From the UHGV virus genome UHGV-0375936: DNA of 64,000 nucleotides. One strand, 5' to 3'. The number at the start of each line of letters is the position of its first letter. The first letter of the stretch is position 1. Under the pieces are notes generated by a model. That model saw only the letters and a program-made list of their open reading frames with translations. It had not been told where the DNA came from and did no database searches. The position numbers and the translations under genes are program-made. The stretch is from a virus. Below, one piece after another: positions 448-44,639 of this stretch.

Positions 448-1185
448 TTAATAGCCCTGATAAATGATGTCGTCACGGTCTTTACGTAACTGGCAGTATG
501 TTACGTCAGCACCGTTAGGGATTTGTACGCCAGCGTCTTCAAGATAAATAACACCAGTCTGATTACAGAAATAAAAAGACCACAAGTACGGATTGCCTTG
601 ACAACTGTTTTCACGATGATCGAAGGGCCAATAGCCTCGATACAATTCGTCGTAATCACCGCGCTCGATACCAAAAGCAATCATTTCTTTTTCCCACAAT
701 CTGCTTTCGGCGTCGTAAATCGAAAACCAGAAACCGACGAGGTTCTTTGTCCGTTTAACGTTCATTAAGTCGTTATAAATGGGGAAGAGTGCTTTATTGA
801 AACTTTCTAACATCCCTGGAGAGAGTAGAAAGTTCACGTAATATTCTAGCCATTGATAAACGGCTTCCCAGACATCCTCAGAAGAGAAATGCTCGAATAC
901 GGCGTCATCACAATCGTAGTTATCGAAGACCCCTGAGAGATCTATTATGACGTCGCGAAGGTCAAAGTTTCGGTTGGTATTGACACCCTCAATAACTTCA
1001 GCGATGAGACGAGTAAAGACGTTTGTGCAGGCAGTCTGTGCGGTATAAAAGAATTCTCCTTGTACGGTTGACCACTTTGGGTCCTTCAAATGTTCATTGA
1101 AGTATTGTGGCCAAATTTTATAAAAGATTCCCTCGAACAACGAGGGATTGATACGTTGTAATTGAGGGACATAAACTTTTAGCAT
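448..1185 (-). CDS. hypothetical protein
   Basis: 245-aa ORF, GGAG RBS upstream of ATG, same strand as neighbours. Confidence 0.6.
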   Translation of the reverse strand: MLKVYVPQLQRINPSLFEGIFYKIWPQYFNEHLKDPKWSTVQGEFFYTAQTACTNVFTRLIAEVIEGVNTNRNFDLRDVIIDLSGVFDNYDCDDAVFEHFSSEDVWEAVYQWLEYYVNFLLSPGMLESFNKALFPIYNDLMNVKRTKNLVGFWFSIYDAESRLWEKEMIAFGIERGDYDELYRGYWPFDHRENSCQGNPYLWSFYFCNQTGVIYLEDAGVQIPNGADVTYCQLRKDRDDIIYQGY

Positions 1186-1221
1186 TTTAATAACTCCAAT
1201 GGTGTTACACCTGGATAATAT

Positions 1222-1890
1222 CTATCTAAGAATATTTTTAGCGAAAAAAGGATCGACTATAAACTCCTTCACCTGTGAGTCATAACCCGAATGTATTTGA
1301 TCGCTACTGAGCAAATACCCGTCTAAATCGTGTGGAAGAATCCAAGAATCCCCCTGTTTAAAAATACCATAATCTGTTGTTCCAGAGGAAAAAACGATTT
1401 CCTCTGGAGAGGGATAGATGTGGCGTAAGGCAAGATCAGACGGCTTTAGCACGATTAATCGAACGGGATGTTGACTGACTGCCTCTTTAATAAACTGTTC
1501 ACGATTAAACCAAATTATTTTTTCGGGGTAAGTTTCGAATTCAGCCCATGTCCGCGTGATAACTAATTTGGAAATCTTTCTCAATTCTTCAGAATGCTCT
1601 GCGTAGCCGATACACTCCTTGCGTACTTCATGATTTTCTACCGATGCTGTGAATTTTTGGAATAGGTGTTGTTGGAAAAAGCCGTTCTCCGGGATATCAC
1701 AACCCGCGTTGTATAGTGCAACGATCTCCCACAACAACGAAAGAGAAAACACAAATGCTAACTTTTCCACAACTTCCCAATCTTCGGAGTAAGGGGCTTT
1801 AAAGCCCCAATACTGCCGTGCGTTATACATAAAGTGAGTTTGTAAAAACCGAGGGGCTTTTGACAAGACCTCACTATAAACGATCAGCAT
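1222..1890 (-). CDS. hypothetical protein
   Basis: 222-aa ORF, 7-nt overlap with upstream gene (translational coupling). Confidence 0.6.
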   Translation of the reverse strand: MLIVYSEVLSKAPRFLQTHFMYNARQYWGFKAPYSEDWEVVEKLAFVFSLSLLWEIVALYNAGCDIPENGFFQQHLFQKFTASVENHEVRKECIGYAEHSEELRKISKLVITRTWAEFETYPEKIIWFNREQFIKEAVSQHPVRLIVLKPSDLALRHIYPSPEEIVFSSGTTDYGIFKQGDSWILPHDLDGYLLSSDQIHSGYDSQVKEFIVDPFFAKNILR

Positions 1891-3404
1891 TCAAGCTCCT
1901 TATCCGTCAATATTCGTTTGTTTGAATAATAGCCGCACCACAACCCATGATATTTTTCCCCGATATAAACCAACGCGTACTCGATATACTGCCGTTCTGG
2001 ACGCCGTACCGCCACGTAGAATCGTCCTTCTGGTTCTTTCATACGGTTGATTTCCGTACGCGTCGGTATGTCGATACCTCGAGTAAGGATGGTTTTAACC
2101 TTGTTTTTGCTACCTGGGATATGGATGGTTACGTCAAAACCTTTATCTACGTTACGATAAAAGTCTTTCTTCGGCTTACCTTTCTCATCGTAAAGCAGGT
2201 CAGTAATGTCGTTCATTACGACTGAGTTTTTCCCCTCCATGGCATCGCGTAACCAACCTGCAAGCTCATCACGAATCGTAATGCAGCGATAAGACAATAA
2301 CGCGGGACGAAGAATTCGTGTAATCGAAAGATCTTCAAACATCCACAGGTTTTTGTCTTCGCTAAAATGCATCCGTTCGATAGGAATACCGTTAGCTGCG
2401 GCTTCTGCGAACTTCTTACGTTTTACGAATAAGTTAAATACAACGGCGATGGGATCAAATTGACGTAAACGGGGCACCCCTTCCCACGCTTTCGCAGAGT
2501 GGGTATTTACCAACTCGTATACGTTATCCCACGGTTCTTTGGTAAACATTACGCAGAATTGTGCGTCTGGAATGTACTTACCAACGAAGACGATATCGTC
2601 CTTCTGTTTTGCATGGTTCCCACCGAACATGTAATAAAGTTTATTACCGTTAACCGTAACCGTGGGATGCGGTTCGTTCACCATCGGGTAACAGAACTTC
2701 GTAACACAGATATCAGGAAAGGCAGACAAATTGACACCCTCGCCAACAACTTCTGGTTGCTGTTCTTCCTCAGGCATCTCGTCTTTTGACCAATACGGTG
2801 TATAGTCTAACCCATCACCTCGAGCCGAAATACTTGAACCTTTCCGTGCTAACTCGTCGGCACGTTCGTTTCCATAACGTCCTGAATGCCCTTTAATTTT
2901 AAGGACACGAACACCTTTCCCTTCTTTCTTTAACCGCTGTTTAACCTCCCACATCCGTTGGATTAATTCCAAGTTCGCAATAGGTGTACCGTCTGCACGA
3001 CGCCAACCGCGTGCAGCCCAACCATCAATCCAATCGTTATACGTGTTGACAACGTAAGAGGCATCGATATAGATAACATAGTTTTTGGCAACGAAAGGTG
3101 CGTGTTCGAAGACGGTCAGGAAAGCCACGAGTTCTGCAACGTCAGAGTGTGACATTTTTGGTACAGGCACAACGCCGTCAATAAACTCCACAGTTTCTGG
3201 TAAAGGTGGAAGTTTTTCATCCTTGTTTATCTGGCGGTATCCTGACGACGTAATCCCCTCTGGAATAGAGGGATGGCGGTAAACCCGACCATCCTCAATC
3301 GCTTCACGATTAAATAAGTATCCATGAATCCCCGCTCCTGTACCGAGCGGGGAGGTCAAATGGCTACCATCCGTGTAAATTACTGCAACATCAACGTTCT
3401 TCAT
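1884..3404 (-). CDS. RNase H-domain protein with about 300-aa C-terminal extension
   Basis: N-terminus VAVIYTDGS ... KIKGHSGRYGNERADELARKG resembles RNase HI active-site and C-terminal motifs; remainder unassigned. Confidence 0.65.
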   Translation of the reverse strand: MKNVDVAVIYTDGSHLTSPLGTGAGIHGYLFNREAIEDGRVYRHPSIPEGITSSGYRQINKDEKLPPLPETVEFIDGVVPVPKMSHSDVAELVAFLTVFEHAPFVAKNYVIYIDASYVVNTYNDWIDGWAARGWRRADGTPIANLELIQRMWEVKQRLKKEGKGVRVLKIKGHSGRYGNERADELARKGSSISARGDGLDYTPYWSKDEMPEEEQQPEVVGEGVNLSAFPDICVTKFCYPMVNEPHPTVTVNGNKLYYMFGGNHAKQKDDIVFVGKYIPDAQFCVMFTKEPWDNVYELVNTHSAKAWEGVPRLRQFDPIAVVFNLFVKRKKFAEAAANGIPIERMHFSEDKNLWMFEDLSITRILRPALLSYRCITIRDELAGWLRDAMEGKNSVVMNDITDLLYDEKGKPKKDFYRNVDKGFDVTIHIPGSKNKVKTILTRGIDIPTRTEINRMKEPEGRFYVAVRRPERQYIEYALVYIGEKYHGLWCGYYSNKRILTDKELEC

Positions 3405-3406
3405 TC

Positions 3407-4141
3407 TTAATCCCTGGTTAATTGATCACGAATCTGTGGCGCAACATACTCGCCTGTTTTCAGTTCTTCGTGACAGGCTTTGGCGCGTTCAAACCCGTAT
3501 TGGCGTGTGACCAAAGCGAGGTGGTAAATACGTGCCGTGGTGTAGGCTTCTTTTGCTGCATCCCACATTGCGTGGTGCTCAAAAGCGGGCTTACCGCGTG
3601 TCCAGTAAATTTGCTCTACGGTTAAGTCAGGCTCGAAACCAAATGCAAAGGCTAAACGTTCTGCAGTACGATCGCTATCCAGTGCACTAAATTTACGGAA
3701 CTTCCCTGGCGGAATATCACATTGTGCGAACGCGTTCATGAAAATCGGTGCATCAAAGTCAGGACCACGCATGGTAATAACAAATTCATGTTTTGCGGTA
3801 ATCTCCCCGAGCCATTTTTGCATCGCCCACAGTGCGTCCGGCAATGCTGTCGTCCCACCCCATGCTTCCGCATAGGCTTCACGAGACGGTGCGTATTCGG
3901 GTTCGCCTTTACCTTCCCACCAACCAACAGTTTGTGGGTCTTCGTGGAAAATGGCTTTTGCTTTAGGATCGTTAGGATCAATACGGATGTATGAGGAACC
4001 GACCATTTTCAATGTAGGGACGTCAAAGGCCACTAAACCTGCACTTAACAGATAAGCATCGGGACGTAATGATTTGGTTTCAGCATCAGCGCCAATAACC
4101 AGCGTCGGTGTGTACGGGGTGACAATTTTTGGGTAGGTCAT
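3407..4141 (-). CDS. putative DEDDh-type 3'-5' exonuclease
   Basis: Candidate Exo I (GADAET), Exo II (GPDFDAPIF) and Exo III (HHAMWDAAKEAY) motifs; AGGAGAA RBS. Confidence 0.5.
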   Translation of the reverse strand: MTYPKIVTPYTPTLVIGADAETKSLRPDAYLLSAGLVAFDVPTLKMVGSSYIRIDPNDPKAKAIFHEDPQTVGWWEGKGEPEYAPSREAYAEAWGGTTALPDALWAMQKWLGEITAKHEFVITMRGPDFDAPIFMNAFAQCDIPPGKFRKFSALDSDRTAERLAFAFGFEPDLTVEQIYWTRGKPAFEHHAMWDAAKEAYTTARIYHLALVTRQYGFERAKACHEELKTGEYVAPQIRDQLTRD

Positions 4142-4232
4142 GTTGAATTCTCCTGTTAGTCTACATTAAAATAGTCGTAAACGTTAAAAAGAAAGACCCT
4201 CCTGTACCACGAAAGGGTACAGGAGGGGGGTG

Positions 4233-4691
4233 TCAGTACAAACACGATGTCAAGTATTGGTTATACGAATCGAGCAGTGTCTGACGGTCGGAACGGTAAT
4301 TCCACAACAAATTATTGAGTTTACGCGATAAGTCACGGCTAATCTCCTGGGGCGTTAAAGAGCTTTCATCAAGAGATAAGCGTTCAGGTACAACATGTAA
4401 CTTCGGTAACTCATAACGTTCACAAAGTGGAGCCAGCATTGGTGGGCTCCAGCCACGTTTAACGGCTTGTTGGTTTAAATTTCGGGTGTAGACATAAACG
4501 TAGTAAGCATAGGTGTTGACATCCGCAACATACTCACGCATTGCATTATTGTCAATTTTCCAATTCACCATTATTGGCGGTGTAGGAGGAAGTTCCAGTG
4601 GCCTATAAGCTGGACGTTTAACTTCGTCGCCGTAGCTATTACTCACCAACCCCACGAACACCATCATGATGAATAACAGCATTTTCATCAA
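4233..4691 (-). CDS. secreted Pro-rich protein
   Basis: N-terminal signal-peptide-like hydrophobic stretch MMKMLLFIMMVFVGLVSNSYG, Pro-rich region after it. Confidence 0.5.
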   Translation of the reverse strand: MMKMLLFIMMVFVGLVSNSYGDEVKRPAYRPLELPPTPPIMVNWKIDNNAMREYVADVNTYAYYVYVYTRNLNQQAVKRGWSPPMLAPLCERYELPKLHVVPERLSLDESSLTPQEISRDLSRKLNNLLWNYRSDRQTLLDSYNQYLTSCLY

Positions 4692-5195
4692 TCACTCCTT
4701 AGAAGACGTTAGCGTCTTTATGATCTCCTGTCGAAAACTGTTCGCATTTAAATTGCCAACAGGTCTCGCCGAAGCCTCTTTACGTTGTTCTGGTGTTGAA
4801 GCTGGATTAACAGGAGTTTCTGGTTTTGTCGAAGACAGATCCTTCGCCGTACCGCTCGCTTTCGATGAATTAAACGTGCTTTCATATGGCGGTTTCTGGC
4901 CGAGGCAAACGAAGAGCCTGTCGTATAACTTCCCATTATCTTCTTTTAGTTTATCTCGATCTTGTTTCATCTCTTGGTAAGACTGCGACATATACGTGTC
5001 ATGAGACTGCACTGCAACGAGCGCGTGAAACTGTTGTACATAGGCGTAGGAGACGAAGCCAGAATACGACAACAAGATCGTGATGATTAAAGTCATTATC
5101 TTGCTTGCTCTTGATACGTTTTCTCCTTCTCCTGGTTTAAATGCTTCCATTAACATCTGAAGGAAGAACGGAAGCACTTTAAAAAATGAACCCAT
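4692..5195 (-). CDS. membrane-anchored coiled-coil protein
   Basis: Internal hydrophobic helix IMTLIITILLSYSGFVSYAYV followed by charged helical region; abuts 4233..4691. Confidence 0.5.
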   Translation of the reverse strand: MGSFFKVLPFFLQMLMEAFKPGEGENVSRASKIMTLIITILLSYSGFVSYAYVQQFHALVAVQSHDTYMSQSYQEMKQDRDKLKEDNGKLYDRLFVCLGQKPPYESTFNSSKASGTAKDLSSTKPETPVNPASTPEQRKEASARPVGNLNANSFRQEIIKTLTSSKE

Positions 5196-26537: not shown

Positions 26538-29500
26538 ATGGCTGTCGTCCTAGACCCACACTTCAAAAAACCGGGGAATAAAATAACCGGTGAAGCGGTC
26601 GCCGTCATTGGTACGAAATACCGAATGTTGGTACCTGCCCACGCCCCTTTTTTCACCACATCCCTGGTGGTCAAGAGCGGCGGCAAAACACTGACCTTAG
26701 GCGACGATTACATTATTACACACCCGTACGAGACCGGTATGTTGCGCACAGCCTATCTCATTCACGGGATGATTTGGATTGTTAATGACAAATACAAATC
26801 GAATTTTACGGTAGATTACCACGCCGTTGGTTGTGGTCAGGCTACCCAACAACAGATTACCGCAGAACGCGAACTCAATAAAGATAAATACCCGACTACG
26901 TGTCAGTGGGACACCGTCATCGGGGACGTTTACTTTCCGCCGGTCGATATCCAGTTCGATTGGGAGAATTGGAAAGGTGAACTGGAATTAATGCAGGCTA
27001 TTGCTGGATTAGGCGATTCGTTAGGGGAAGTCGTGAGTCGACTTAACCCCATCGCACGCAATACCCTGGATTTAGAATACCGTGCTAACAGCAAGGTTAT
27101 CACTTCCGAGCAGTATGCCGCATACGACAATAAAGGTGGGTTCACCTACAACACTACCCGTCATCGTTATAGCTTGAGTTATAAAACTGCAACCTTTAAC
27201 GACTACGCCCTGTCAGTGAAACATAGAATTCCTGCTATTCTGCCAGACATGACGAAATTGAATCCAAACGAACAGATCGATTGGATGCTCTGTTATGCTA
27301 ACGGCGGGGCAAGTATTCTACGGCTGCAGCTAAAACAGCGCAAAATCTCACTGGTCTTAACGGTCGCTATTGGTAGCGGTTCAACAAACTACGATTATAC
27401 GTTAATCAACGGTTTAACTGACGATGAGTTAAAAAACGATATCGATTTTAGTGTAACCCGTCAACCCGGAAACGGTGTTTACGTCATCGTAGTAAAAACA
27501 AATAAACAGACCATGGATTACACATTCAACGTCGATACGCCGCCTGATGAGTTCTCGGCAGGGTATTCGAAAACGGATGTTGCTAAATGGTTGAAGTCTA
27601 AAACGAACATTAACCTGAACTGGTATGCTGGACAAAAAGATTATGTTCAAATTCGTTCTTTACCCGGCGCACCAGAACCTGACGTCGACAACGATGTTTA
27701 CCAGTTAATAGTTAAATACCATCAATTAGTTGAGCAGCTGTATCGTAACGCGCCTGCACACGAACACGTTACACGTAAGGACAACCCGCACACCGATACG
27801 TGGGGCCCGATCCGTGCGTTACAGCTGAATGGTATTGCGTCGGATGCCGCGTTAGCTTACGGGAAAACGAAACAACAGTTAACGGATTATGTTAATGCTA
27901 AGTACCCAACACAAGCAACGTTAACCGCACAGAAAAAACTGCTTCGTGAATCGGCGAACAAGAACGTTAACGGCACGATTACCACACTTCCGGGTTTTAC
28001 TTCGTTCACGACGGAAGTTGATCCGGTTTCGATGTCGAAATACGTGAGTCCTAGTTTTAGCGAAAGCTACGTTAGTAATGGTCACAGGTATCACGGTGCG
28101 CTTCGTTACACAGGAACGAAAAGCGGTTTCAGTGCTAACTTTAATGCGGTGCCTGCCAACCTGCAAGATATTGACTTTATTGTTACCGGACGTAAAACAG
28201 CGTCTGGTAACGAAGCTGTCGGTGCAGTTGGTTTGCGTTTCTACGAAAACCCCGGTAGTAACTCCGGTAAGTTTGTAGAGATTAACGGACAAATCTGGGC
28301 TGGTACCCTTACTATCAGTCTGACATTGAACGGTTACGGGAGTCCGTTACCGTCGGTGCGTTATATTTCTCAAGCCCCTAATCCGGCAATACCGGATGGA
28401 GATTTTACGCTACGTTTTCAACTGAAGCGTACAGGGAACGTGTTTGACGTCGTTATTACCGTAAACGGTAAAACGTATAGCGCCCGGATTAACTTCAATA
28501 ACATGGACGCTGCGTTAGAAGCATTAGAGAATCAGCACCACTTTAAATCGCTGATCAATAATGTTGCCGATGGCGTCAAAATTAGTTCGCAAAACAAAGG
28601 TAACACGGTTACCATTAAGAAAGCACCGGATGTCGTTGACGGAACTCGTTTAGGTGCCCAGTTTGTCGTTGATCCGAAATCCATTAAGTTTATTGGCCAA
28701 GGTTCAACTGATGTTAACGTAGGAAATAACCCCGTAACGTTCCAAGCAGGTACTAACCAGCTTATGTTGTATCCTGACGATCGTGGGTTACAGTGGCGTG
28801 GTAAAAAACTCTTAGACCCTACCACCGTGGCCCCGTATCTGCCAGGTAATACCGCAGGTGGTACCGGTTTATTCTACGCAAGCTCGACAACAACAGTTAC
28901 GATCACTGGTAGCGGGATAAAAGCTTCGCCGTTCGTAGCGACCTTTATTCTCCCTACCGCGACCGATACAACGGCTCTGGCAGCTTGGCAGTTGACCGAT
29001 GAGTTCGGTACTGCTGAAAACCTTGCAGCAACGCCAGCACTGATTGAAAAACTGGATGCGGAGTTCACCGGTAAGTTAGTTGCAGTTAAATCGTACATTA
29101 ACGACATGCAGCTTACCAGCTCGGTTACTATCGATAAGATTACCTTCGGTTTAGGTAATGTTGCGAATACGCCCGATGTCAATTTACCGATTTCTACAGC
29201 ACAGCGTGCGGAGTTAGATAAATACTCGCCTAAGGTTCACCAACACCCGTTTACCGCTTTTGGTACCGGGAACGCAACCACAGCGAAACGCGGTCTGATT
29301 AAATTTGGTCTGGATGTGGATGATGCGACTTTAGCACTCGATGGGAGTGTGGTAATGGCGCAGACTTCCCAGATTGAAAAATTGGAGAGTGCTGTCGGCG
29401 GCGTTGACTCGGAGGCACGTCTTGATATCATACGTTTTGGTGAGTCTGGTAACGACTTAATAGACGTTACGGTCAAAGACAAAATTCTGGTCACGCTTCC

Positions 29501-30860
29501 AGCTTCAACGTATTTTATCGGTGGCGAAACGTACACCGTACCGTTGATGACGATTAACGTTAGTGAACGTTTTCCGAAATTGAATACAGAGATCTACGCG
29601 GGGATTTTTGTTGATATTGTTGATAACAAAGCGAAGTATATTATCCACGACAGCTACAGTCAGGCCGAAACGGATACCATGACGCGTGTGGGGTTGATCG
29701 GCGTCAACGACCTTTCTGAGGTGTTCGTTACAGAGATGCGTAATGTCACACGGTTGGGTGATTTCCGTGAACTGAAAGATCATAAAGCCGATGACAACGC
29801 ACACATTCAGCGCTCCGCATCACGTGCAGCGCTTGGGTTAGCTAACTTAACCGTAGGTGCGCCTTGCTGGGCTTCTGGACTCCAGGCAGTAGTACGCGGT
29901 GAAGCAGATTGGCGTTATGTTGCCGGTGGACAGTATAAAGCTTTAGACGGGGTGAAATACGACCAGCTCGCATCCAAGTGGATTTTTGACGCGAAAGGGG
30001 TAAGCGATAACCTACACGGGTTTATCCACAACATGTTCCCAGCTTTTAAGAACGCAGGAATGCGGGTAAGTTGGGAAACAGAAAGCAACGCAAAAACCGG
30101 CACGGTGTTAGAAACTGTTTTAGGTTGTTGGAAAAACACCGACGGCGAGTTTATGCGGTTGTCGTTACTTATCACTCGTGGTTATCGTTTAACTGACAGC
30201 AACGGTGAGTATTGTTACGCAGGGTTCGGTTTGAACTTCGGTAGCGGGAAATCGGTAGTGTTAGGTTTCACACCAACGAAGCGTGTTACGCCTGCACCGT
30301 GGAATACGTTACAACCTGACGTAACGTTTACCCACACCCGTGCTGCAAATAACGCATTAACGTTTAACGCAACACTGACCTTAGCGGGCACTACGTATAC
30401 CGTCGTGGTGTTTTTATCTGCGACAGATAAATACGTAAGCTGCACGGCAGCAGGGGGAGCTACGCAGAAAATCCCTCTAACTGACCGTTTAACAGGGTTC
30501 AACCTCGCACCTATCGTTAACGATCCGTATACCCCTATTTACTACGGTTTAGGGGGACTTTATGAGGATGAGGTTCGTGCCAACATCCGTTCTACGGCAG
30601 ACAGCGCAACCGCGAATAAAGTCTACGGTACGTTGTTAGACTATATTAGCAACTATTCCTCATTAAATCGTGTGCGCGTTATGGAATTGAGCGGTGTCAG
30701 TTCAGACCCCGAAACGCTTAATGCGTTAGTGGCAACTGAATTTAATAACAACCTGGCGGATTACGCCGCGTTACCGATACCTTCTTATCTTAACAAGGAG
30801 CGCGTAATGTCGTTTATCGACACCAACAATAAAGTGCAGGCGGTAATCATTCGCGATTAA
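26538..30860 (+). CDS. tail-fibre-like protein (paralog 1 of 4)
   Basis: 1440 aa; N-terminal PFF...G..L.LG.DY domain shared with next three genes; T4 gp34/gp12-like repeat (NATTAKRGLIKFG). Confidence 0.65.
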   Translation: MAVVLDPHFKKPGNKITGEAVAVIGTKYRMLVPAHAPFFTTSLVVKSGGKTLTLGDDYIITHPYETGMLRTAYLIHGMIWIVNDKYKSNFTVDYHAVGCGQATQQQITAERELNKDKYPTTCQWDTVIGDVYFPPVDIQFDWENWKGELELMQAIAGLGDSLGEVVSRLNPIARNTLDLEYRANSKVITSEQYAAYDNKGGFTYNTTRHRYSLSYKTATFNDYALSVKHRIPAILPDMTKLNPNEQIDWMLCYANGGASILRLQLKQRKISLVLTVAIGSGSTNYDYTLINGLTDDELKNDIDFSVTRQPGNGVYVIVVKTNKQTMDYTFNVDTPPDEFSAGYSKTDVAKWLKSKTNINLNWYAGQKDYVQIRSLPGAPEPDVDNDVYQLIVKYHQLVEQLYRNAPAHEHVTRKDNPHTDTWGPIRALQLNGIASDAALAYGKTKQQLTDYVNAKYPTQATLTAQKKLLRESANKNVNGTITTLPGFTSFTTEVDPVSMSKYVSPSFSESYVSNGHRYHGALRYTGTKSGFSANFNAVPANLQDIDFIVTGRKTASGNEAVGAVGLRFYENPGSNSGKFVEINGQIWAGTLTISLTLNGYGSPLPSVRYISQAPNPAIPDGDFTLRFQLKRTGNVFDVVITVNGKTYSARINFNNMDAALEALENQHHFKSLINNVADGVKISSQNKGNTVTIKKAPDVVDGTRLGAQFVVDPKSIKFIGQGSTDVNVGNNPVTFQAGTNQLMLYPDDRGLQWRGKKLLDPTTVAPYLPGNTAGGTGLFYASSTTTVTITGSGIKASPFVATFILPTATDTTALAAWQLTDEFGTAENLAATPALIEKLDAEFTGKLVAVKSYINDMQLTSSVTIDKITFGLGNVANTPDVNLPISTAQRAELDKYSPKVHQHPFTAFGTGNATTAKRGLIKFGLDVDDATLALDGSVVMAQTSQIEKLESAVGGVDSEARLDIIRFGESGNDLIDVTVKDKILVTLPASTYFIGGETYTVPLMTINVSERFPKLNTEIYAGIFVDIVDNKAKYIIHDSYSQAETDTMTRVGLIGVNDLSEVFVTEMRNVTRLGDFRELKDHKADDNAHIQRSASRAALGLANLTVGAPCWASGLQAVVRGEADWRYVAGGQYKALDGVKYDQLASKWIFDAKGVSDNLHGFIHNMFPAFKNAGMRVSWETESNAKTGTVLETVLGCWKNTDGEFMRLSLLITRGYRLTDSNGEYCYAGFGLNFGSGKSVVLGFTPTKRVTPAPWNTLQPDVTFTHTRAANNALTFNATLTLAGTTYTVVVFLSATDKYVSCTAAGGATQKIPLTDRLTGFNLAPIVNDPYTPIYYGLGGLYEDEVRANIRSTADSATANKVYGTLLDYISNYSSLNRVRVMELSGVSSDPETLNALVATEFNNNLADYAALPIPSYLNKERVMSFIDTNNKVQAVIIRD

Positions 30861-30873
30861 GGAGAATTTTTTG

Positions 30874-33800
30874 ATGAAAGCGTATCCTTACGATCCTCGG
30901 GGGACGAAAGCCGAGAATCACTTCTTAGAGGAGCGTATCATCGGGTCAGAGAACAACAACGATCGGGTGGTGATTTTAGACCACCGCCCGTTCTTTGAAG
31001 ATTTGGTCGTCAGACAACCAGGTTCAACCACCCCACTGAGTCGTGGGGTGGACTACGAACTGCAATATCAGCTGACGGAACTGGATGACTCGGTAGCAGC
31101 CAACGTGTATTGTGGGGTACACCTTATCAACCCATCCATCAAAGGCATCGTAACCTTTGAAGGACAAATGCTCGGCGGTACGTTCTACGACCCGTTTGTT
31201 GATATTCTCGATGAACTGGTGAAATATTTGAATAACCCTGTCAGTGCTGACTGGTTGTTATTAGACGGTAGACCATCGTTATATCCAGCGACGCCAGCAG
31301 CAACGTCCTGGGCGGATTTGCTGAACAAAAAATATTTAGCGTCGGCAGTTCACGATATTGAATTGAAAACCGACGACGCTAACCAGTTAATTAAAGACAA
31401 ATTAGCTGAAGTTAAAGCGTTAGTGACTGCGTTGGGTAAAGAAATCGAAGCATTTAACTACCCGGCACATATCGCGGAAACCAACCCACACAAAACCACA
31501 TCCGCGCAGATTAACGCGCATCCTGTTAACTTGAAAACACCCGACACCTTTATGGCGTACGGGTTAAAGTTGAAAGCGCTGACGGATGAGCTGAAAGCGT
31601 TTCGTTTACCCCAGTCAGTTATCGACACGTATATCTCTCACTGGATTTCTTCGGAAGTACGTGGCGTGTTTAACTGTACGGTGTCAGGAAACCGCGCACA
31701 GTTCCGTTCGAAAAACGGTGAGTCAGAAATCATTTTTGCCAACGATGGTTTTACGTTAAAATCCAACGGTTCTGTGGTATTAGCGGTAGGGCATCTGGAA
31801 GGTACGGGTGCAGGACGTTACATTAATTGGCGTGCCGGTAAAAACACATTACGCATCGAGTCAACAGGCGATGCTTTAGGGATGAACAAACTCACCCTGA
31901 ACGGTAACCCGTTACTGACTACCACGGCGTTGATGGAATACCAACAAGATCCAGATGCGGGTTCTGGTGGCGGTGGCGACCCTGATGACTCGAAGGTGTA
32001 CATTGAAGGCCGTAATGGGATTAGCTTTACCGGTAAAGGTTCTCGCGCCGACCCTATCGTGGGGACTATCGACCCAACAAAAGCGACAACCGCCGAAAAA
32101 GGCGTCGCTAAACTTAAAACAGGTAAAGGTACAGAAACGACTGGGGTTGCTGCAACTCCGGCTTCGTTAGCACCATACTCGACTGACCTATCGGGGTATG
32201 TGGCTAAAACGACCATGATTAACGGTAAGCCGATGAACGACGGCTCCAGGACAATCACGAAAGCTGATCTGGGGTTAGGGCAAGCGAATAACACCGCAGA
32301 CGTTGACAAACCGTTGTCTACCGAGTTAAATGCGGCGCTTAGCGGCTTAGCGGATGCAGGCCACCACCACGATTGGTCGGAACTCGGCATTTATAAAGCC
32401 TCGCAATCCGTTTACGGTATCGGTCGTTACGCAACTAACCAGAACGGTTTGGTTGAAAACCGTGCGGTAGTACCGAACATCTTAAAAGAACTTTCGGCGC
32501 GTTTAGATGTGGTTGCTGCGGCGATTGCAAACGCGAAAGAAGGATCGGTAACGGATTTCGCTGCGGTAAAAGGCGCAGAGTGGCGCTTTAATAGTCAGGG
32601 TACGGCAATCTCCGTTCAAGATTTGAAGTATTTCTATTTGCTGAACGGTACGAAAGCTGATAGCACCGTTACAGGTTCGATTGACCTGCAAACTACGCCG
32701 ATGTTTAACTGGTTCTCACCGAACAACCAAATTGAGACGACTTGGCCTACGGGGAAAGTGAGCGCTGGTAAGGGTATTAACTGGACAGGTATTGAAGAAC
32801 CACCACTAATGGGTTTCCAATCTGTTCCGGTAGGTAAAACTGCCTCACAGATGGGTGACCAGTCAGTTGTTACTGTGTTGGCCAAAACGCGGGTAAGGGC
32901 ACACCAGTCGAAGCTTTGGGTTTATGCCGCAGGGGGTGGTCCGGTTACAGTTTACATTAACGGTATCCAGGCAGCCACAGGCCAGTCTCCACTCGTTGCA
33001 GTGCATGAAACATCAGCAGACGTTGAAAACTACACCGTAGCGGTTAAAGCTGAGTGTAGCGACACAGCTAAATCCGCAGCGGTGCAATTCGAAATTTACG
33101 ACGGTGACTACCCCGTTTATTTCAGTGGCCCTGAAACGCGCGTAGAGCTTCTCCAAGAGTTTGTTACAACACACGTAGGGATTCGTCATTATCTGTACGT
33201 TAACATGCTCACAAGCTCTCTGTATTCGCGTACTGAGCCAATTCAGAGTGTTGCAGTTGATCCTGAGCGCGGTTATATCGGCTACGTTGATATTGTTGCC
33301 GGTGAGTCTTACGCGAATAAGAGCGTGAGTTTTGAAACCACGTTTGATTTCGGGAAAAGTGCCGAGGTTAGTGAACACATTGACACACGCAAAGCACACG
33401 GACTCAGCTCTGTAGACTGGACGTTAACGGATAACCCACGTTTCCCGTTATTAAATCGTGCGATTGCAGAGCCGAGAACGTGTATTTTTAGAAAAACGTT
33501 AACGGCCGGTACTGGTGACGTTTTTCATCTCGTGAGTCGTGGTCTTTATACTTACGCACATAACCAAAACGTGAAGTCCAGTCTTCAATACGTTGTGATA
33601 CCTGAAGGTGCTACACCGTATTGCTGGTTTACGCCGTTTAACCCGAAAGAAAACAACGCACCGACGTTCGAAGGTTCGTTTGTGTTCGACGTTGACGACG
33701 TCGGTGGAACACAAGCGCTCACGGCTGCACCGGATTTGGTGCTGTGTACGTCAACACAAGGTAGCAGCGTTAAACGTCGTTACGTACGTATTGACCTAAC

Positions 33801-35055
33801 TGCCAAAGCGTGTAAGCTGGGGATTGGTTCTCGTTCAGATTCTGCGGTTACGGATATCCCGTTAGTGATGGAGGAATCTGGGGAAACGGCGGTGGCGGCA
33901 ACGTTTAAGGATGTGTTGTTCAACGGCGAGGAAACCAACGCAGCGATACTCGACTTGATAGGCTGGGGTCCAAATAAAGACAAAATCTCTGCAAACCACG
34001 CGCCACGAGGTATGATTCGTTATCGTTACAACGTAAACACTCGGGTATTACGTTTAGCACTATCGTTCTCACAGTTCGGAACGACAACAGTTAAGCACCG
34101 CCAGTTGGAAATTGAATTTCCGTTTGATTTGGTGGATTACTTCACCGGTGACGGTGTAGGATTGTCGTTTAAAGAACTGTCTGCGAAATGCCGTGTAACG
34201 ATTAGCCACGCACTGATTGATCCGGTTACGACTAAAATCGATATTGATAAGTATCATTACCTACGCTCGTTATTTGAGTCGTATTTGGATGCATCTGTTG
34301 GTTATTTGGCTGATACCAAAGACGCCGACTTTAACCAGTCTGTGATTGACCCTGCGACTTATGAGATTAATCAGAAATACCGCGTTACCGAAAGCATTGC
34401 GCTGCCGACCGGTCAGGGAAGTGTTGCTGTTTCCCATGACGGTCAGTTACCTGCACAGTTCTTTGACCGTAAGCTGTCTCGCGGTGCTTTGATGGCCAAG
34501 AAAGGTGAACTTCATACTTCCTGGAACAATGAGTGGAGTACATCCAAAGCTGCCGCAAACCGGTATCGACATAAACTCATTCTGCGCTTTGCACAAGGTG
34601 CTGATAAACAACAGTACCGTGTTGCAAAAGTGACAGGAACGGTGAAGTGTAACTGGCCGGGCAAGGTGATTATCGGTGATGCTGGGAAGGACGCGTATGT
34701 ATCAGCTATCGATAGCGTGCCGTTTGCGCTTTCGACCAGCGCGGACACAGGTAAAGCAGTTACCCTTACGCCAAAGGATCTACGTGTAGGGCAGGACATT
34801 TATATTGTCTTAGAACCACCAGGCAATAATCCAGAAGGCTACGAGCTTAACTTTACCTGTTCGTTAGATGTCACTGACGAGAAAGGTGTCCGTCAAGACC
34901 AGCTCAATGCGCAGAGTTTCGAACTCCGTAGCGGCGAAAGTCAGTTCTTAATGGAGAAACGCAATCCGTACCACATCACGAGTAAAGCGTGGAAGTGGAT
35001 TCTGGCTGTACTGAAACGAGAACTTAACGGGAAGCAGTTAGGGGATCGTACTTAG
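30874..35055 (+). CDS. tail-fibre-like protein (paralog 2 of 4)
   Basis: 1394 aa from ATG after AAGGAGAA; shared N-terminal domain; repeat ATTAEKGVAKLKTGKGTETTGVAATPASL. Confidence 0.65.
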   Translation: MKAYPYDPRGTKAENHFLEERIIGSENNNDRVVILDHRPFFEDLVVRQPGSTTPLSRGVDYELQYQLTELDDSVAANVYCGVHLINPSIKGIVTFEGQMLGGTFYDPFVDILDELVKYLNNPVSADWLLLDGRPSLYPATPAATSWADLLNKKYLASAVHDIELKTDDANQLIKDKLAEVKALVTALGKEIEAFNYPAHIAETNPHKTTSAQINAHPVNLKTPDTFMAYGLKLKALTDELKAFRLPQSVIDTYISHWISSEVRGVFNCTVSGNRAQFRSKNGESEIIFANDGFTLKSNGSVVLAVGHLEGTGAGRYINWRAGKNTLRIESTGDALGMNKLTLNGNPLLTTTALMEYQQDPDAGSGGGGDPDDSKVYIEGRNGISFTGKGSRADPIVGTIDPTKATTAEKGVAKLKTGKGTETTGVAATPASLAPYSTDLSGYVAKTTMINGKPMNDGSRTITKADLGLGQANNTADVDKPLSTELNAALSGLADAGHHHDWSELGIYKASQSVYGIGRYATNQNGLVENRAVVPNILKELSARLDVVAAAIANAKEGSVTDFAAVKGAEWRFNSQGTAISVQDLKYFYLLNGTKADSTVTGSIDLQTTPMFNWFSPNNQIETTWPTGKVSAGKGINWTGIEEPPLMGFQSVPVGKTASQMGDQSVVTVLAKTRVRAHQSKLWVYAAGGGPVTVYINGIQAATGQSPLVAVHETSADVENYTVAVKAECSDTAKSAAVQFEIYDGDYPVYFSGPETRVELLQEFVTTHVGIRHYLYVNMLTSSLYSRTEPIQSVAVDPERGYIGYVDIVAGESYANKSVSFETTFDFGKSAEVSEHIDTRKAHGLSSVDWTLTDNPRFPLLNRAIAEPRTCIFRKTLTAGTGDVFHLVSRGLYTYAHNQNVKSSLQYVVIPEGATPYCWFTPFNPKENNAPTFEGSFVFDVDDVGGTQALTAAPDLVLCTSTQGSSVKRRYVRIDLTAKACKLGIGSRSDSAVTDIPLVMEESGETAVAATFKDVLFNGEETNAAILDLIGWGPNKDKISANHAPRGMIRYRYNVNTRVLRLALSFSQFGTTTVKHRQLEIEFPFDLVDYFTGDGVGLSFKELSAKCRVTISHALIDPVTTKIDIDKYHYLRSLFESYLDASVGYLADTKDADFNQSVIDPATYEINQKYRVTESIALPTGQGSVAVSHDGQLPAQFFDRKLSRGALMAKKGELHTSWNNEWSTSKAAANRYRHKLILRFAQGADKQQYRVAKVTGTVKCNWPGKVIIGDAGKDAYVSAIDSVPFALSTSADTGKAVTLTPKDLRVGQDIYIVLEPPGNNPEGYELNFTCSLDVTDEKGVRQDQLNAQSFELRSGESQFLMEKRNPYHITSKAWKWILAVLKRELNGKQLGDRT

Positions 35056-35093
35056 GACAGACTGCCTGCGGGCAGTTGTGTGTCCGTAGGTAA

Positions 35094-35130
35094 CCCCTCC
35101 CTGTAATGGGGAGGGGTATCCATTTTATTT
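35094..35130 (+). terminator. intergenic hairpin / possible attenuator
   Basis: CCCCTCCC-TGTAAT-GGGAGGGG hairpin with T-rich tail between fibre genes 2 and 3. Confidence 0.45.
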
Positions 35131-35149
35131 AAAAGTAGGAGTCTTTACG

Positions 35150-38100
35150 ATGCCGAGAGAAGACGCGGCGCAGTTTAACGGTACGCTAAGCACAACGACG
35201 TACCCTAACCGATTTAACGTGGTCATTCCGCCTGAAGGACCTTTTTATCGTATCGGATTAAAACTCACAGTAGCCGACGATACCGCGCCTAACGGACGTC
35301 GTACTCTGATTGAGGGGTTGGACTACTATTTAGGCTATTACTTTAAAGAACTCGCAGAAGCTGAACAAGATCAGATTTATGGCGGGTTTATGTTGCTTAC
35401 TGCAACAGAAATCGAATATGAGATTTTAGGGGTAGCACGTCAATACCGTGTACCGCAATCTGAAATCGGGAAGTTCTTAGTTCGTACTGACCTGAAAGAC
35501 CCACGTAACGTGGACTGGTCAGAGTTAATGGCGTATGCGCCAGTTATTCAACCTATCGATCCCCCTGCTAACTTAGAAGAAGCTATCCTGAGGGATGAGG
35601 TTGTTAAAGCGTTAAACGATATCCGTAAGAAAATCATTCAACGTTCAACAGAGTTAGATGCAGCGTTTACCGAAGTCACTAACCTGATTTACGAGAACGG
35701 TAAAAAGATTTTCGATGAAGAACTATACCAACACCACCTTAATCCTAACGCTCACCAGTATACGACCACTGATGTTGGTGCTCTTCCGGTTTTGGGACGT
35801 GCTGTTGACGCGACAAAAGCGTTTGGACTGACGATTGACCAGCTGGCTACGCTGATGGGTTCGGCGGGTATTGAGCAATCAGACGTTGATCAGTTAATAG
35901 GTGAAGCCCTCGGCACTGTTTACGGTCGTTGGGGCAGCACGAACGGTAACGAACTGACGTTTAAAACCGCAGGCGGACACATCATCAGTATCCGTGGTGA
36001 TAAGTGGTTAATTACCTCACCGCAACCGTTGGTGATTAAAGCAGACCAGGACAACAACGAATCGGGTTTGGCGGTTGAATTTAGTGCGGGGCTGAATACG
36101 CTTTGGGTACACTCTGGGACAGAACAAGATGTATTAGCGCCGGTTTACAACTCTGTGTATTTGGTTACACCAGAAATGGTGAACATGTACCTTACGTCTG
36201 TAACGTTACTTGAAGCAAATGCCTATTTCAAACCATCAGACACCGTAAAACCATACGGTACAGCGAAGCAGTCTAATCCGCTAACGTTGAACGCGAATAT
36301 CCCCACAGCAACCGAGTCGGTTTATGGGGTGTTTTCGATTACGAATATCGCAACCTCCGTAGCACTAGGCACTGCTATTTCCCAAAAGGCGGTGACCGAA
36401 TTAAAAGACCGGTTAGACTTGTACGTTGACGATGACTACACGGTTAACGGTAAAGGGTTTGTTAAGACAGGCGATAAAATGGTGTTAACCTTAACGAAAA
36501 CCGATTTCGGTATCGATAAGATGGATAACACCACGCCGATCGCTAAACCGGTAACAAAAGCGTTAGCGAATGTGCTGAAAAATAAAAGTTTGAAGGTGCA
36601 TACGCACACTACCGCCGATTTGGATAATGTCCCGATTGGTAGTGCGACCGTGGATGGTATCTTACAGCTGTGGGATGCGATTGATACCACGAATGATAAA
36701 GCCGTCACATCACGCCAAGGGTGGTTGTTCGCAAAAGAGATTAAGAAGGTCTCTGATAAACTGAATACCCTCTTGCCCGCATGGACAACGTCCGGGAGCA
36801 AATACACCAATAATTCGATATTGCCGATCTTGTCGATGGGTAATTACGAAGGTTATGGTAAAAACATGGATGCGCTCCAGATGGTTATAGGGGTACAACA
36901 AGGTAAGCTTTATGCTTTAATTAGTTCTAAATCTGCCCTTCCGGGAACTGAGGGTATTTATTACGCTGTTGCTGGGTTAAAAAACGACAAAAGTCTCGGT
37001 GAAATTTACAAAACAACTTTCCGTTATAAGCCGAAAGGGTTAGAGACGAATTATCCGGGGGTGGAACTAAAAGAAATTACCGTTACTGGCACCGAAGCAT
37101 TTATAGCGAAGGGCAGCGACGATAATTATTATTTAGTTAAACTGAACGGTTCAATGGATTACACCAAACATACCGATGTCAGGTTGGTAACTTTCTCAGA
37201 ATTTGTTTCAGAAACAACATGGGAATTTGTGCCGAATATGTTCATGGATCGTGTGGTCATAGCCGATAACGGCGTCTATGTTTTGCGTACGATGCTAATG
37301 GCCGATCTGAAAAACAATAGTCTGGTGGACTACATTAAGGATACTCCGCAACCTATGTTCCGTGTTGGGTTATTGCGACTTAATAAAACCGATCGGTTTG
37401 AACAGGTTGATTTAAGCTCTACACGAAAAATCGGTAAGTGTGCCGATTTGGTTGAACCTGGCGCGTTCGATGTAGATAATCCGAATACGAAGCGTCTTGC
37501 CTACTTCACTGCGGAAGGCAAAGCGTTGTGGACAGTGAATTTACAATTAACTAGAGGGGTGTCAAGATGGATAACGCCCGTTGTTAAGGACGGTCACTTG
37601 TTAACCGTCGGCGTGTCTGGCGTTTGTCTTGGTTTTTCTTCAACGAAAGGTACCACATTCGGGCCATGGAATGGTGCTTATCGTCTCGACCTATTAACCG
37701 GGGAGGTTGGGTTAGAGACAACTAACATCTTCCCAATCAAAATCGATACTACAGGTTGCTACTTAAAAGACGGAACAAAAATAGAGCTGAAATGGAAATG
37801 GGCTACTCGAAGTTCTGGCTATATGGCCGACAATAGAATCTGTGTCGGTGATATGGTTTATTCTTGCTGCTGTTCGACAGAAAAACAACTTGCACCGTCT
37901 CTCCATTACCAGAAACTCCCAGAAGGAGTTAGTTATCTGGACTATGTTAAGTTGAGTGCGGGGTATGAGGGGCAATCTACGTTTGAAAATCGGATAAACC
38001 CTGTGGTGGGTTCGGTGTGGAAACCGTCTATGACCTTCCCATTGTTCTTCCCAGGAACAAACAAAGTATGGCTTAAACATCAAAAAACGGCTTATTTCAT

Positions 38101-40336
38101 TGAAGCCGAATATGATAAAGATACGACTTATGGTTATCCTGGATACGGCGGGTTTGGACCAACATCCCGCCGTGTTGAAAAAAAAGCGAACGAATACGGC
38201 GTATTGACAAATATACCGCTGGTTGTTACGCCAGACATACCGAAAGGTCTACTAGATGGGGCTTACTTTATCGGTGCTGAAAGTAAACCATGTAAAGTTG
38301 TTTACGGTACCACTACGGTGGCTAGTGATCGGTTGTCTATCGATGCGGCAGAATGGGCGAAGTTGACTAATATTGTTCAGTCCAGCCAGTTCTCTGGGGC
38401 TTCTAACGGCAACGCCTATGAGCGGATTAGCGTAGCTAAGACCAAAAAGAACAACTACAGTTTGTCCTTTTGGGTGCTTGGTCAAACGATGTCTGGTGGT
38501 CCGCTTTGTATCGCGATAGTGAGTCTTATCTATAAAGACACTGACGGGGTAAATAAGTTTGCTTTTTACTTCTTTCAGGTAAAACCGACTATAACCAACG
38601 GGGTCATAAGGTTCGTTAGTTCGGAAGCGAGAATGATGACGTTCAGGGAAAAAGTGGCCAGTAACGCCATTAATCTCTCACCCACAGCTTTTAATGGTGA
38701 ACTTAAACAACGCTCCGGTCAAGTTTTCCTTTATTCGCAAGACGGACAAAAGTTCAGATTCTCAATACATAACCTGGTTGGCGGGAATCTTGTAGGATCA
38801 GAGATTTCTTTTGCTTTTGGGATAAACTTGACTAAAAAAGGAGAATGGTTTACCGGCGAAATTCATCGGGCGTGGGGCTATACGTATACGCTGAATAATA
38901 CATCTGAAGTCTATATACCCGATCTCTCGGGCATCGCGCTATTGACTTGTAACTCGGAAGATTTAAACGAGTTGTATCTCGGTGGCGAACAGTATAGAAT
39001 CTCTGATTTGTTTAACAAAAAATATACTGTTATCGATAAGATTATTATTGGCGGCGTACAAACACAGAGCGGTTGGAATTTCTATCTGACGGAGGAAACC
39101 GAGTTAAGTTTTGGAAATAAAAGATATACCGTTCCAAGATGGTCCGTTGATTTAAGCGATGAATTCCCGACTAATCACGCTAACCAGACATTCTACGTTT
39201 ATGCTGAAGTGGTCGGTTCTACTGCCCAATACCGCATCGGTTTAGAGCAGTTAGCTGATACCTCGTCGAGACTGTTTGTTGGGACAGTAACCACTGATTC
39301 GAACCGTATTACGGATATCAGTATCGATAAAGTAAAACGGTTAGGTCGTGTAAAAGAGCTGGAAAATCATGCCTCGGTTGTTGATCAGCACGATGTGGCG
39401 CAGGCGTTCGACAGGAAAACTGGTCCACTATTAACAGTGGTTAATAAACCCGTTAAAGCCATTACAGCATCTGCGAGCAAGGGTGCTGGGTATGTCGATG
39501 GCCAGAAATGGAATACGTTGTCCGGGATTGCAACGCGGCCCAGGTTGCCGGTACAGGAAACCTATTCAGGTTATAAAAGTATCAGCAGGGTGGCGTATGA
39601 GAACTGCGCTGACCAGTTCTGGCAGAAAGCGGTTGCTGCGAACGTTGCAGCGGCTACTGCTTCTGAGAACAAACAAGCAGCAACCGCGAACATGAAGTGG
39701 TTGGGTGCGTATACGAAACCGACTACCGGCGAGTATGCATATCTGGCATTGAGTCTGCGTGTTAAAGTACCTGGCGATCCTGGTACTACTAATCGTCGAC
39801 TGAAAATCAGGCTTGCGGCCCCGACAGGTATAACTCAAGTTCGTTACGGGCTAAATCAGTCTGGCGGTACGATGACTGAACAGACAGTAACGCTAACTGC
39901 TAACAGTTACCTGGAAAAAGAACACGCGGGATTTAAGCCAGCCGCCGAAGTCCGCCTTCATGCTACGTTTGTCATTCCAAAAAATGAATACGATAGCTAC
40001 CGGACCAAATTTGGTGCTGTTCAGCTGATTGACGTTGAGACGAACACTGTCATTAAACAGACAGATATCGACACACCGTTTATCGTGTACACCGCCACAG
40101 AGCAAGCGGCACAATCTGGTTTGGTGTATAAAGCGGTTAAGAGTCAGTTTCGTCAACTCCCGGCTCAACCTGTCGTCATTGTAACTGATGGACAGACAGG
40201 GACTACACCACCGGTGAAAACCGCATATTCTGACGGCACGTTAACGGTCTACGTGGCAACCACGTACGATGCGGTTAACCCAGCACAAACTCGCGATATC
40301 GATAAGCTCCAGTTCAATCTTATGTTTACATCTTAA
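35150..40336 (+). CDS. tail-fibre-like protein (paralog 3 of 4)
   Basis: 1728 aa; AGGAG RBS; shared N-terminal domain (PPEGPFYRIGL...GLDYYLGYY). Confidence 0.65.
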   Translation: MPREDAAQFNGTLSTTTYPNRFNVVIPPEGPFYRIGLKLTVADDTAPNGRRTLIEGLDYYLGYYFKELAEAEQDQIYGGFMLLTATEIEYEILGVARQYRVPQSEIGKFLVRTDLKDPRNVDWSELMAYAPVIQPIDPPANLEEAILRDEVVKALNDIRKKIIQRSTELDAAFTEVTNLIYENGKKIFDEELYQHHLNPNAHQYTTTDVGALPVLGRAVDATKAFGLTIDQLATLMGSAGIEQSDVDQLIGEALGTVYGRWGSTNGNELTFKTAGGHIISIRGDKWLITSPQPLVIKADQDNNESGLAVEFSAGLNTLWVHSGTEQDVLAPVYNSVYLVTPEMVNMYLTSVTLLEANAYFKPSDTVKPYGTAKQSNPLTLNANIPTATESVYGVFSITNIATSVALGTAISQKAVTELKDRLDLYVDDDYTVNGKGFVKTGDKMVLTLTKTDFGIDKMDNTTPIAKPVTKALANVLKNKSLKVHTHTTADLDNVPIGSATVDGILQLWDAIDTTNDKAVTSRQGWLFAKEIKKVSDKLNTLLPAWTTSGSKYTNNSILPILSMGNYEGYGKNMDALQMVIGVQQGKLYALISSKSALPGTEGIYYAVAGLKNDKSLGEIYKTTFRYKPKGLETNYPGVELKEITVTGTEAFIAKGSDDNYYLVKLNGSMDYTKHTDVRLVTFSEFVSETTWEFVPNMFMDRVVIADNGVYVLRTMLMADLKNNSLVDYIKDTPQPMFRVGLLRLNKTDRFEQVDLSSTRKIGKCADLVEPGAFDVDNPNTKRLAYFTAEGKALWTVNLQLTRGVSRWITPVVKDGHLLTVGVSGVCLGFSSTKGTTFGPWNGAYRLDLLTGEVGLETTNIFPIKIDTTGCYLKDGTKIELKWKWATRSSGYMADNRICVGDMVYSCCCSTEKQLAPSLHYQKLPEGVSYLDYVKLSAGYEGQSTFENRINPVVGSVWKPSMTFPLFFPGTNKVWLKHQKTAYFIEAEYDKDTTYGYPGYGGFGPTSRRVEKKANEYGVLTNIPLVVTPDIPKGLLDGAYFIGAESKPCKVVYGTTTVASDRLSIDAAEWAKLTNIVQSSQFSGASNGNAYERISVAKTKKNNYSLSFWVLGQTMSGGPLCIAIVSLIYKDTDGVNKFAFYFFQVKPTITNGVIRFVSSEARMMTFREKVASNAINLSPTAFNGELKQRSGQVFLYSQDGQKFRFSIHNLVGGNLVGSEISFAFGINLTKKGEWFTGEIHRAWGYTYTLNNTSEVYIPDLSGIALLTCNSEDLNELYLGGEQYRISDLFNKKYTVIDKIIIGGVQTQSGWNFYLTEETELSFGNKRYTVPRWSVDLSDEFPTNHANQTFYVYAEVVGSTAQYRIGLEQLADTSSRLFVGTVTTDSNRITDISIDKVKRLGRVKELENHASVVDQHDVAQAFDRKTGPLLTVVNKPVKAITASASKGAGYVDGQKWNTLSGIATRPRLPVQETYSGYKSISRVAYENCADQFWQKAVAANVAAATASENKQAATANMKWLGAYTKPTTGEYAYLALSLRVKVPGDPGTTNRRLKIRLAAPTGITQVRYGLNQSGGTMTEQTVTLTANSYLEKEHAGFKPAAEVRLHATFVIPKNEYDSYRTKFGAVQLIDVETNTVIKQTDIDTPFIVYTATEQAAQSGLVYKAVKSQFRQLPAQPVVIVTDGQTGTTPPVKTAYSDGTLTVYVATTYDAVNPAQTRDIDKLQFNLMFTS

Positions 40337-40376
40337 CGCCACGAGACAAGGACGTCTCGGATTAAGGAGAGTGGCC

Positions 40377-43715: not shown

Positions 43716-44639
43716 ATGACAACCAATGCAGAACCAAGGTTATCGAATCGTTTATACGATAAACCCACCGTATTGTCCGTAGTCGCTACGTCCAAGTGTA
43801 ACCTGGATTGTAGCTTCTGCGGTGGAGCCTATTACATGAATCGTGAAGATTCTCCGCGAGAGTTTCAACGTGAGCGAATTTTGGAAGCGCTGGAAGCTAA
43901 TCCAACCATTACCGAAATTCAGTGGACGGGTGGTGAGCCATTACTGGCAACCCGTAAAATTGAGGCGTTTGTTGACGAATTAAAAGTGATTCGTCCAGAA
44001 CTCAAACACCAGTTGTATACCAATGGCTTAAAGATGCGTAAATCGCATCTCCCGTTGCTAAAACAGTTTGACAATGTCTACGTTAGCATCGATGGGTTTA
44101 AGTCGTCTGAGCGCCCGTTTATGCGCTTTATTGACGAAGGCTGTTACGAAGCACTGGAAACGATCTACGAGCTGGATAATGTCCAGACTTGGGGTGTCCT
44201 GACACGGGACCGTTTAGGGGACAAACGCTGGCACGAAGATATTATTCAGCTGCACAGCGCGATTTACCATTACGGTTTCCGTGCAATGACGTTACTCTTA
44301 GATGCGAAAATGCCAAAACCTTTATCGCCTGACCACGTCATGAACTTTATTTACGGCTACTATCAGGTTCAGGATAACATTGAACGACTGAATGTAGTAA
44401 ATAGTCGTGAATGCGGCTTTACAGTAAGTAAAGTGTTTGAAGAAGGGTGTAACGTTTGCAGCGAAAGTCTTTGGATTAATGCAGACGGCGGTGAGCACCA
44501 ACTCCAGAATGCACCTAACGTTCTGGAATCGGGATGTAACCAACTGGCCTTCTCTATCGGTGTAGAGGCGTACGAATATATTCGTCGCGTAGTGATGGCA
44601 GGGCGTAATAGAGGGGCGGCAAATGAGTCAAGTAAATGA
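43716..44639 (+). CDS. radical SAM enzyme
   Basis: CNLDCSFC (CxxxCxxC) near N-terminus, GGEPLL SAM-binding motif, four more Cys in the C-terminal third. Confidence 0.8.
   Translation: MTTNAEPRLSNRLYDKPTVLSVVATSKCNLDCSFCGGAYYMNREDSPREFQRERILEALEANPTITEIQWTGGEPLLATRKIEAFVDELKVIRPELKHQLYTNGLKMRKSHLPLLKQFDNVYVSIDGFKSSERPFMRFIDEGCYEALETIYELDNVQTWGVLTRDRLGDKRWHEDIIQLHSAIYHYGFRAMTLLLDAKMPKPLSPDHVMNFIYGYYQVQDNIERLNVVNSRECGFTVSKVFEEGCNVCSESLWINADGGEHQLQNAPNVLESGCNQLAFSIGVEAYEYIRRVVMAGRNRGAANESSK

Follow-up and report, generated by a model that had tools for sequence, protein, structure and literature searches.

Kazlauskas and Venclovas noted in 2011 that phiKZ-like phages are puzzlingly without a detectable sliding clamp, and the matter was left as an open question (PMC3201878). 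The phiKZ protein gp155 (Nlp2) is an essential member of the chimallivirus core genome, and its knock-down stops both maturation of the phage nucleus and genome amplification (Gerovac et al., Nature 2025, PMC12571901). [quoted passage not shown]

According to the abstract of Basu et al. (bioRxiv, 1 October 2026, doi 10.64898/2026.09.30.755723, PMC13648687), the phiKZ DNA polymerase consists of two subunits in a 1:1 complex, and in cryo-EM structures a single subunit of a protein named Rhc, together with the polymerase thumb domain, holds the emerging duplex. The RNase H domain of Rhc is described there as flexibly linked and unresolved in the structures, and Rhc as strongly raising primer extension by the polymerase. 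No gene number is given for Rhc in that abstract. Because gp155 was the only RNase H homolog detected in phiKZ by tblastn, and because its architecture is exactly the same, we infer that gp155 (Nlp2) and Rhc are one protein.

Gene and phage lineage

The DNA analysed here, referred to as the window, is a stretch of 64 000 nucleotides of the virus genome UHGV-0375936. It contains a single ATG-initiated frame of 506 codons which encodes an ortholog of these proteins, with the following features (coordinates of the gene including the stop codon):

1884..3404, minus strand: rhc-like gene, complete coding sequence, 506 aa with ATG start; stop codon at 1884-1886
2820..3404, minus strand: N-terminal type-1 RNase H domain, aa 1-195, from Pfam PF00075, PDB RNase HI matches, conserved columns and model
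3189..3311, minus strand: family-specific insertion within the RNase H domain, aa 32-72, between beta2 and beta3, from D-to-E spacing, alignment and model
2742..2819, minus strand: acidic flexible linker, aa 196-221, from low pLDDT, charge and variable alignment
1887..2741, minus strand: C-terminal sliding-clamp-derived domain, aa 222-506 (285 aa), a predicted processivity module binding DNA polymerase and duplex DNA

The length of the product, including the long extension, is genuine and not an artefact of gene calling, since the identical 506-aa protein was called on 17 independent metagenome contigs, the phage family phrog_3265 covers aa 1-504 of it in a PHROG profile search (E = 6.2e-170), and a profile of the C-terminal domain recovers clusters of similar proteins (see below). 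The protein exceeds canonical RNase HI by about 350 aa, and the preliminary description, which had found it far longer than such enzymes, is therefore confirmed. The same description had put the uncharacterised C-terminal region at roughly 300 aa; it measures 285 aa (aa 222-506), and matches in Pfam, NCBIfam and PDB sequences were lacking.

On sequence grounds, the window is assigned to an uncultivated phiKZ-like, nucleus-forming jumbo phage of the Chimalliviridae. A tblastn search with the protein matched 939 phage records; in 114 of these the match spanned 80% or more of the protein. By amino-acid identity the best relatives were gp226 of Erwinia phage Asesino (66%) and the homolog in Escherichia phage EC001 (64%), along with further phages from the SPN3US/Erskinevirus group; Erskinevirus is classified in the Chimalliviridae. 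The exact 506-aa sequence was met in metagenome assemblies only, and megablast of window positions 1000-5000 against GenBank phages returned zero nucleotide matches, by which the phage is no isolate already sequenced. Other genes of the window are in keeping with a phiKZ-like jumbo phage, namely those for an SbcC-like nuclease, giant paralogous virion proteins and a baseplate protein.

Elsewhere in the window, four consecutive plus-strand ORFs (26538-41576; 1440, 1394, 1728 and 435 aa) encode "virion structural proteins" that are paralogs of one another and have modules of phrog_2163, phrog_7449, phrog_7557 and phrog_8078 in common. Two adjacent, slightly overlapping radical-SAM ORFs on the plus strand (43716-44639 and 44623-45945; Pfam Radical_SAM/Fer4_12, phrog_1802) lie in the jumbo-phage structural region. 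On the minus strand, a 706-aa ORF (60432-62552) has both a SASA-type carbohydrate esterase domain and DUF6645, and matches phrog_143 together with several shorter PHROG families resembling fragments of one gene.

The N-terminal RNase H domain

RNase HI hallmarks had been pointed out earlier in the first 200 or so residues, and profile searches bear this out: Pfam RNase_H (PF00075) matched aa 81-190 with 75.5 bits (E = 6.4e-21) over a gathering cutoff of 25.8. The motif IYTDGS occupies aa 9-14 and GHSGRYGNERADELARKG aa 172-189 of the 506-aa protein. The only significant PDB sequence matches of the whole protein were RNase HI and RNase H1 enzymes, including E. coli RNase HI and human RNase H1 (E about 1e-11), and all of them ended near residue 190-200. 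The NCBIfam equivalog models for RNase HI scored 51-69 bits against cutoffs of 160-280, which places the protein outside stand-alone RNase HI.

The catalytic set D12/E91/D114/H173/D183 is intact in the window protein, and in alignments of 46-47 homologs E91, D114, H173 and D183 were invariant and D12 nearly so. The AlphaFold2 model of the domain exceeds pLDDT 90 and consists of five strands and four helices; a W-rich basic protrusion is located at aa 125-139. The domain thus appears to be an active-type RNase HI, the predicted activity being backed by the conserved catalytic residues.

With bacterial RNase HI of the E. coli rnhA type, and with single-domain phage RNase H such as T5 rnh, the domain has in common the catalytic core, the DEDD + His residues and the basic protrusion. 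Those enzymes are, however, single-domain proteins of about 155 aa, to which the window protein adds the beta2-beta3 insertion and the 285-aa clamp-like domain. The distance from D10 to E48 in E. coli RNase HI is 38 residues; the corresponding D12-to-E91 distance is 79 residues here, against 68 in phiKZ gp155 (D10 to E78). The insertion (aa 32-72) was found in all aligned homologs, phiKZ gp155 included, and its model, at pLDDT 93-95, shows few elements of regular secondary structure. This segment of 30-40 aa could be an interaction or import surface.

Linker and C-terminal domain

The linker of 26 residues (aa 196-221) has a net charge of -7, and is variable in length and poorly conserved across homologs. 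In the full-length AlphaFold2 model, built with 46 homologs, mean pLDDT was 90.3 and pTM 0.56, with aa 209-221 below pLDDT 50, whereas aa 222-506 modelled alone formed a single compact domain with pLDDT 93.9 and pTM 0.91. Domain boundaries (1-195, 196-221 and 222-506) were set from the full-length and the C-terminal-only models. Because each of the two domains is confidently predicted, full-length pTM is low and the linker has low pLDDT, the protein is taken to consist of two rigid domains joined by a flexible tether.

The C-terminal domain was modelled on its own because a fold search with the full-length model was uninformative on the extension: among viral models the full-length matches were jumbo-phage "ribonuclease H" proteins, and the others covered the RNase H part only. 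With the separate model, the best matches among solved structures were clamps of five families, i.e. 9-1-1, T4-type gp45, ASFV/PCNA, beta-clamp, and herpesvirus UL44/PF-8/UL42; ATP-grasp proteins were interspersed among them, aligned over 70-90 residues only. PCNAs took the top eight places in Foldseek against the PDB, none of them significant (best E = 3.7e-3, TM at most 0.30). The predicted fold is clamp-related yet strongly diverged, and the TM values point to a geometry altered relative to clamps.

Sequence searches with the domain gave little. The sole Pfam match at E up to 10 was unrelated (E = 0.25), NCBIfam gave no match, and the C-terminal profile found no clamp among PDB sequences at E up to 10; in the Pfam and PDB profile searches no PCNA, gp45 or DnaN profile matched the domain. 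Comparison of its N- and C-terminal halves by hhalign showed no internal repeat, a weak test as clamp subdomains seldom retain sequence similarity. Conserved positions are G262, H264, D270, G275, K276, D280, P367, L370, R373, D399-T401, K410, P447, R449, Y476, Y492 and R497.

The C-terminal profile alone reached 1071 clusters at 50% identity, 865 of them at E up to 1e-10. Nearly all of the 1071 are about 480-550 aa long with the domain at about aa 210-510, and the clamp-like domain accordingly appears nearly always to sit behind a fused RNase H.

Some relatives depart in length. Four proteins of 290-337 aa (P0071, P0082, P0124 and P0187) have the clamp-like domain with RNase H undetectable, and may represent either fragments cut off at contig ends or true stand-alone clamp-like proteins. 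Four others of 668-752 aa (P0073, P0089, P0179 and P0198) have a GIY-YIG catalytic and/or I-TevI-type DNA-binding domain ahead of the RNase H; here either rhc has a homing endonuclease fused to it, or gene calling has joined the two.

Comparison with phiKZ gp155

By tblastn, phiKZ gp155 was a distant match of the window protein (24.6% identity, E = 9e-16), and in blastp aa 5-494 aligned to gp155 aa 3-476. The C-terminal profile aligned by hhalign to gp155 aa 203-477 with a probability of 99.2% (E = 6e-20, 252 columns), extending the homology to both domains. Residues D12, E91, D114, H173 and D183 correspond one to one to D10, E78, D102, H161 and D171 of gp155, and the published catalytic-dead site D102 is thereby D114 in the window. 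On its flanks the gene has homologs of gp157 (E = 7e-48) and gp161 (E = 3e-28), and a weak match to gp156, in microsynteny with phiKZ. As judged from these alignments and the gene neighbourhood, the two proteins are orthologs.

They are alike in two-domain architecture, in length (482 aa in phiKZ, 506 here), in belonging to Chimalliviridae and in neighbourhood (homologs of gp157, gp156 and gp161), and differ in that identity is only about 24%. In the clade of the window both the RNase H insertion and the acidic linker are longer than in gp155, and directly upstream lies an exonuclease gene which phiKZ is without.

Neighbouring genes

The gene is flanked on the same strand by the following ORFs:

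3407..4141, minus strand: DEDD-type 3'-5' exonuclease, 244 aa, upstream of rhc (Pfam PF16473, Rv2179c-like, E = 2.5e-11; phrog_255, E = 3.8e-44)
1222..1890, minus strand: downstream ORF of 222 aa (phrog_9472, function unknown, E = 2e-14)

The stop codon of the exonuclease gene lies 2 nt before the rhc ATG. On the other side, the ATG of the 222-aa ORF overlaps the rhc stop codon (ATGCTGA), with an AAGGAG Shine-Dalgarno sequence within the end of rhc, and this arrangement is repeated on independent contigs. rhc and the 222-aa ORF are probably translationally coupled, and in the SPN3US/Erskinevirus clade rhc, with both neighbours, belongs to a densely packed cassette for which co-translation is probable.

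The exonuclease was present in 66 phage records, which belong to the SPN3US/Erskinevirus/CR5/pVa-21 clade, and absent from all phiKZ-like ones; it adjoins rhc in at least four other genomes (EC001, Asesino, Kwan and Caitlin). It was considered as the exonuclease subunit of the split polymerase (DNAP-N) and rejected: the polymerase is a core gene, but this one is restricted to a single clade and missing from phiKZ-like records, and the protein is therefore not the core polymerase exonuclease subunit. Its labels in public records are inconsistent ("endodeoxyribonuclease", "exonuclease", "exoribonuclease").

The exonuclease and the 222-aa protein might be clade-specific extra replisome subunits working with Rhc, a variant module unseen in phiKZ, which we regard as a doubtful proposition. 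The exonuclease could in that case complete removal of RNA primers or flaps after RNase H cleavage, or add proofreading. Were this true, the SPN3US/Erskinevirus clade would have a replisome module differing from that of phiKZ.

Proposed function and alternatives

The window protein is very probably a replisome accessory subunit orthologous to Rhc, consisting of a diverged clamp domain that aids the polymerase and of a tethered RNase H. Made in the cytoplasm, it would be imported into the phage nucleus, where its C-terminal domain would dock in single copy on the split B-family DNA polymerase, as in phiKZ. The clamp-derived domain and the polymerase thumb would then enclose the duplex DNA leaving the active site, an enclosure expected to make the polymerase more active and more processive with neither ring nor clamp loader. 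The tethered RNase H would remove RNA, either primers or transcripts on the template, from RNA:DNA hybrids near the polymerase or the fork; being on a flexible linker, it would be able to sweep RNA near the polymerase. Genes for the split polymerase (DNAP-N and DNAP-C) were found nowhere among the window ORFs scanned.

The window protein itself displays the two-domain architecture, the intact catalytic set, the disordered linker, the clamp-like fold, homology to gp155 in both domains, and microsynteny. RNase H activity, essentiality, a role that tolerates D102N, import by Imp1/PicA, and binding and stimulation of the polymerase have been described for phiKZ only, and their presumed transfer to the window protein spans an identity of about 24%.

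The preliminary description had proposed that the extension might be a second nuclease or a host-targeting domain. In holding that the extension matters the description was right, and its interpretation is partly supported. A conserved polar cluster (H264, D270, K276 and D280) together with the very weak Pfam match (11.8 bits; cutoff 27), which is to an inactive restriction-endonuclease-like domain, would fit a nuclease. Such a second nuclease or anti-host domain is nevertheless scarcely credible: homology to gp155, which is essential though its catalysis is dispensable, argues that the extension is a polymerase processivity module, and neither nuclease nor host-targeting. A combined RNase H-clamp role, as far as it is given in the abstract of Basu et al., explains why gp155 is essential even with its RNase H destroyed (PMC13648687, PMC12571901).

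There are two further readings of the extension. Ring clamps are typically acidic, unlike the near-neutral C-terminal domain (family median pI 7.2; its net charge, +4 here with a family median of 0, is not decisive). It is very improbable that this domain is a true ring-forming clamp, i.e. a PCNA- or gp45-like homotrimer with an RNase H on each subunit and loaded by a clamp loader: sequence profiles of PCNA, gp45 and DnaN did not match it, Foldseek TM values of at most 0.30 suggest altered geometry, a clamp-loader-like gene was absent among the window ORFs scanned, which are part of the genome, and phiKZ cryo-EM places one Rhc subunit on the polymerase, according to the abstract (PMC13648687). 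An improbable reading, too, is that the domain is mainly a platform on which PicA/Imp1 docks, serving import into the nucleus or maturation of the nucleus and not DNA synthesis. The requirement of Imp1 for gp155/Nlp2 import (bioRxiv 10.1101/2024.03.27.586873), and the single PicA-like punctum at the nuclear periphery and the immature nucleus upon knock-down (PMC12571901), speak for it, yet the immature nucleus may simply follow from blocked DNA amplification, the clamp fold suits a role on DNA or polymerase, and direct structural and biochemical evidence, as abstracted, ties the clamp-like domain to polymerase and DNA (PMC13648687). The import role and the polymerase role of the domain are mutually compatible.

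As a polymerase accessory subunit, the window protein has mechanistic analogs outside its family. The herpesvirus proteins UL42, UL44 and PF-8 are an analogy of mechanism and not of family: they have no detectable sequence relationship to the window protein, are without a fused RNase H, and come from eukaryotic viruses. PCNA, 9-1-1 (Rad9-Hus1-Rad1), T4-type gp45 and beta-clamp are closed rings loaded by AAA+ proteins, whereas the phiKZ domain, on the abstract's account, acts as a single subunit. Ring clamps also recruit nucleases non-covalently through PIP-type peptides; in the window protein the nuclease is covalently fused.

Implications for phiKZ-like phages

For phiKZ-like phages, the processivity factor found missing in 2011 (PMC3201878) has its published answer in the RNase H-clamp protein, going by the abstract of Basu et al. 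(PMC13648687). The architecture and the role of the family have thus already been published for phiKZ (2025-2026), and the window gene is an ordinary new ortholog. New biology at this locus is limited to the possible tie with the clade-specific exonuclease, and the gain is otherwise one of annotation. Public records name these proteins "putative ribonuclease H" or "hypothetical protein", by which their likely main role as a polymerase accessory subunit is missed; the C-terminal profile reaches over 1000 clusters (50% identity), so that an amended annotation would carry over to many other proteins.
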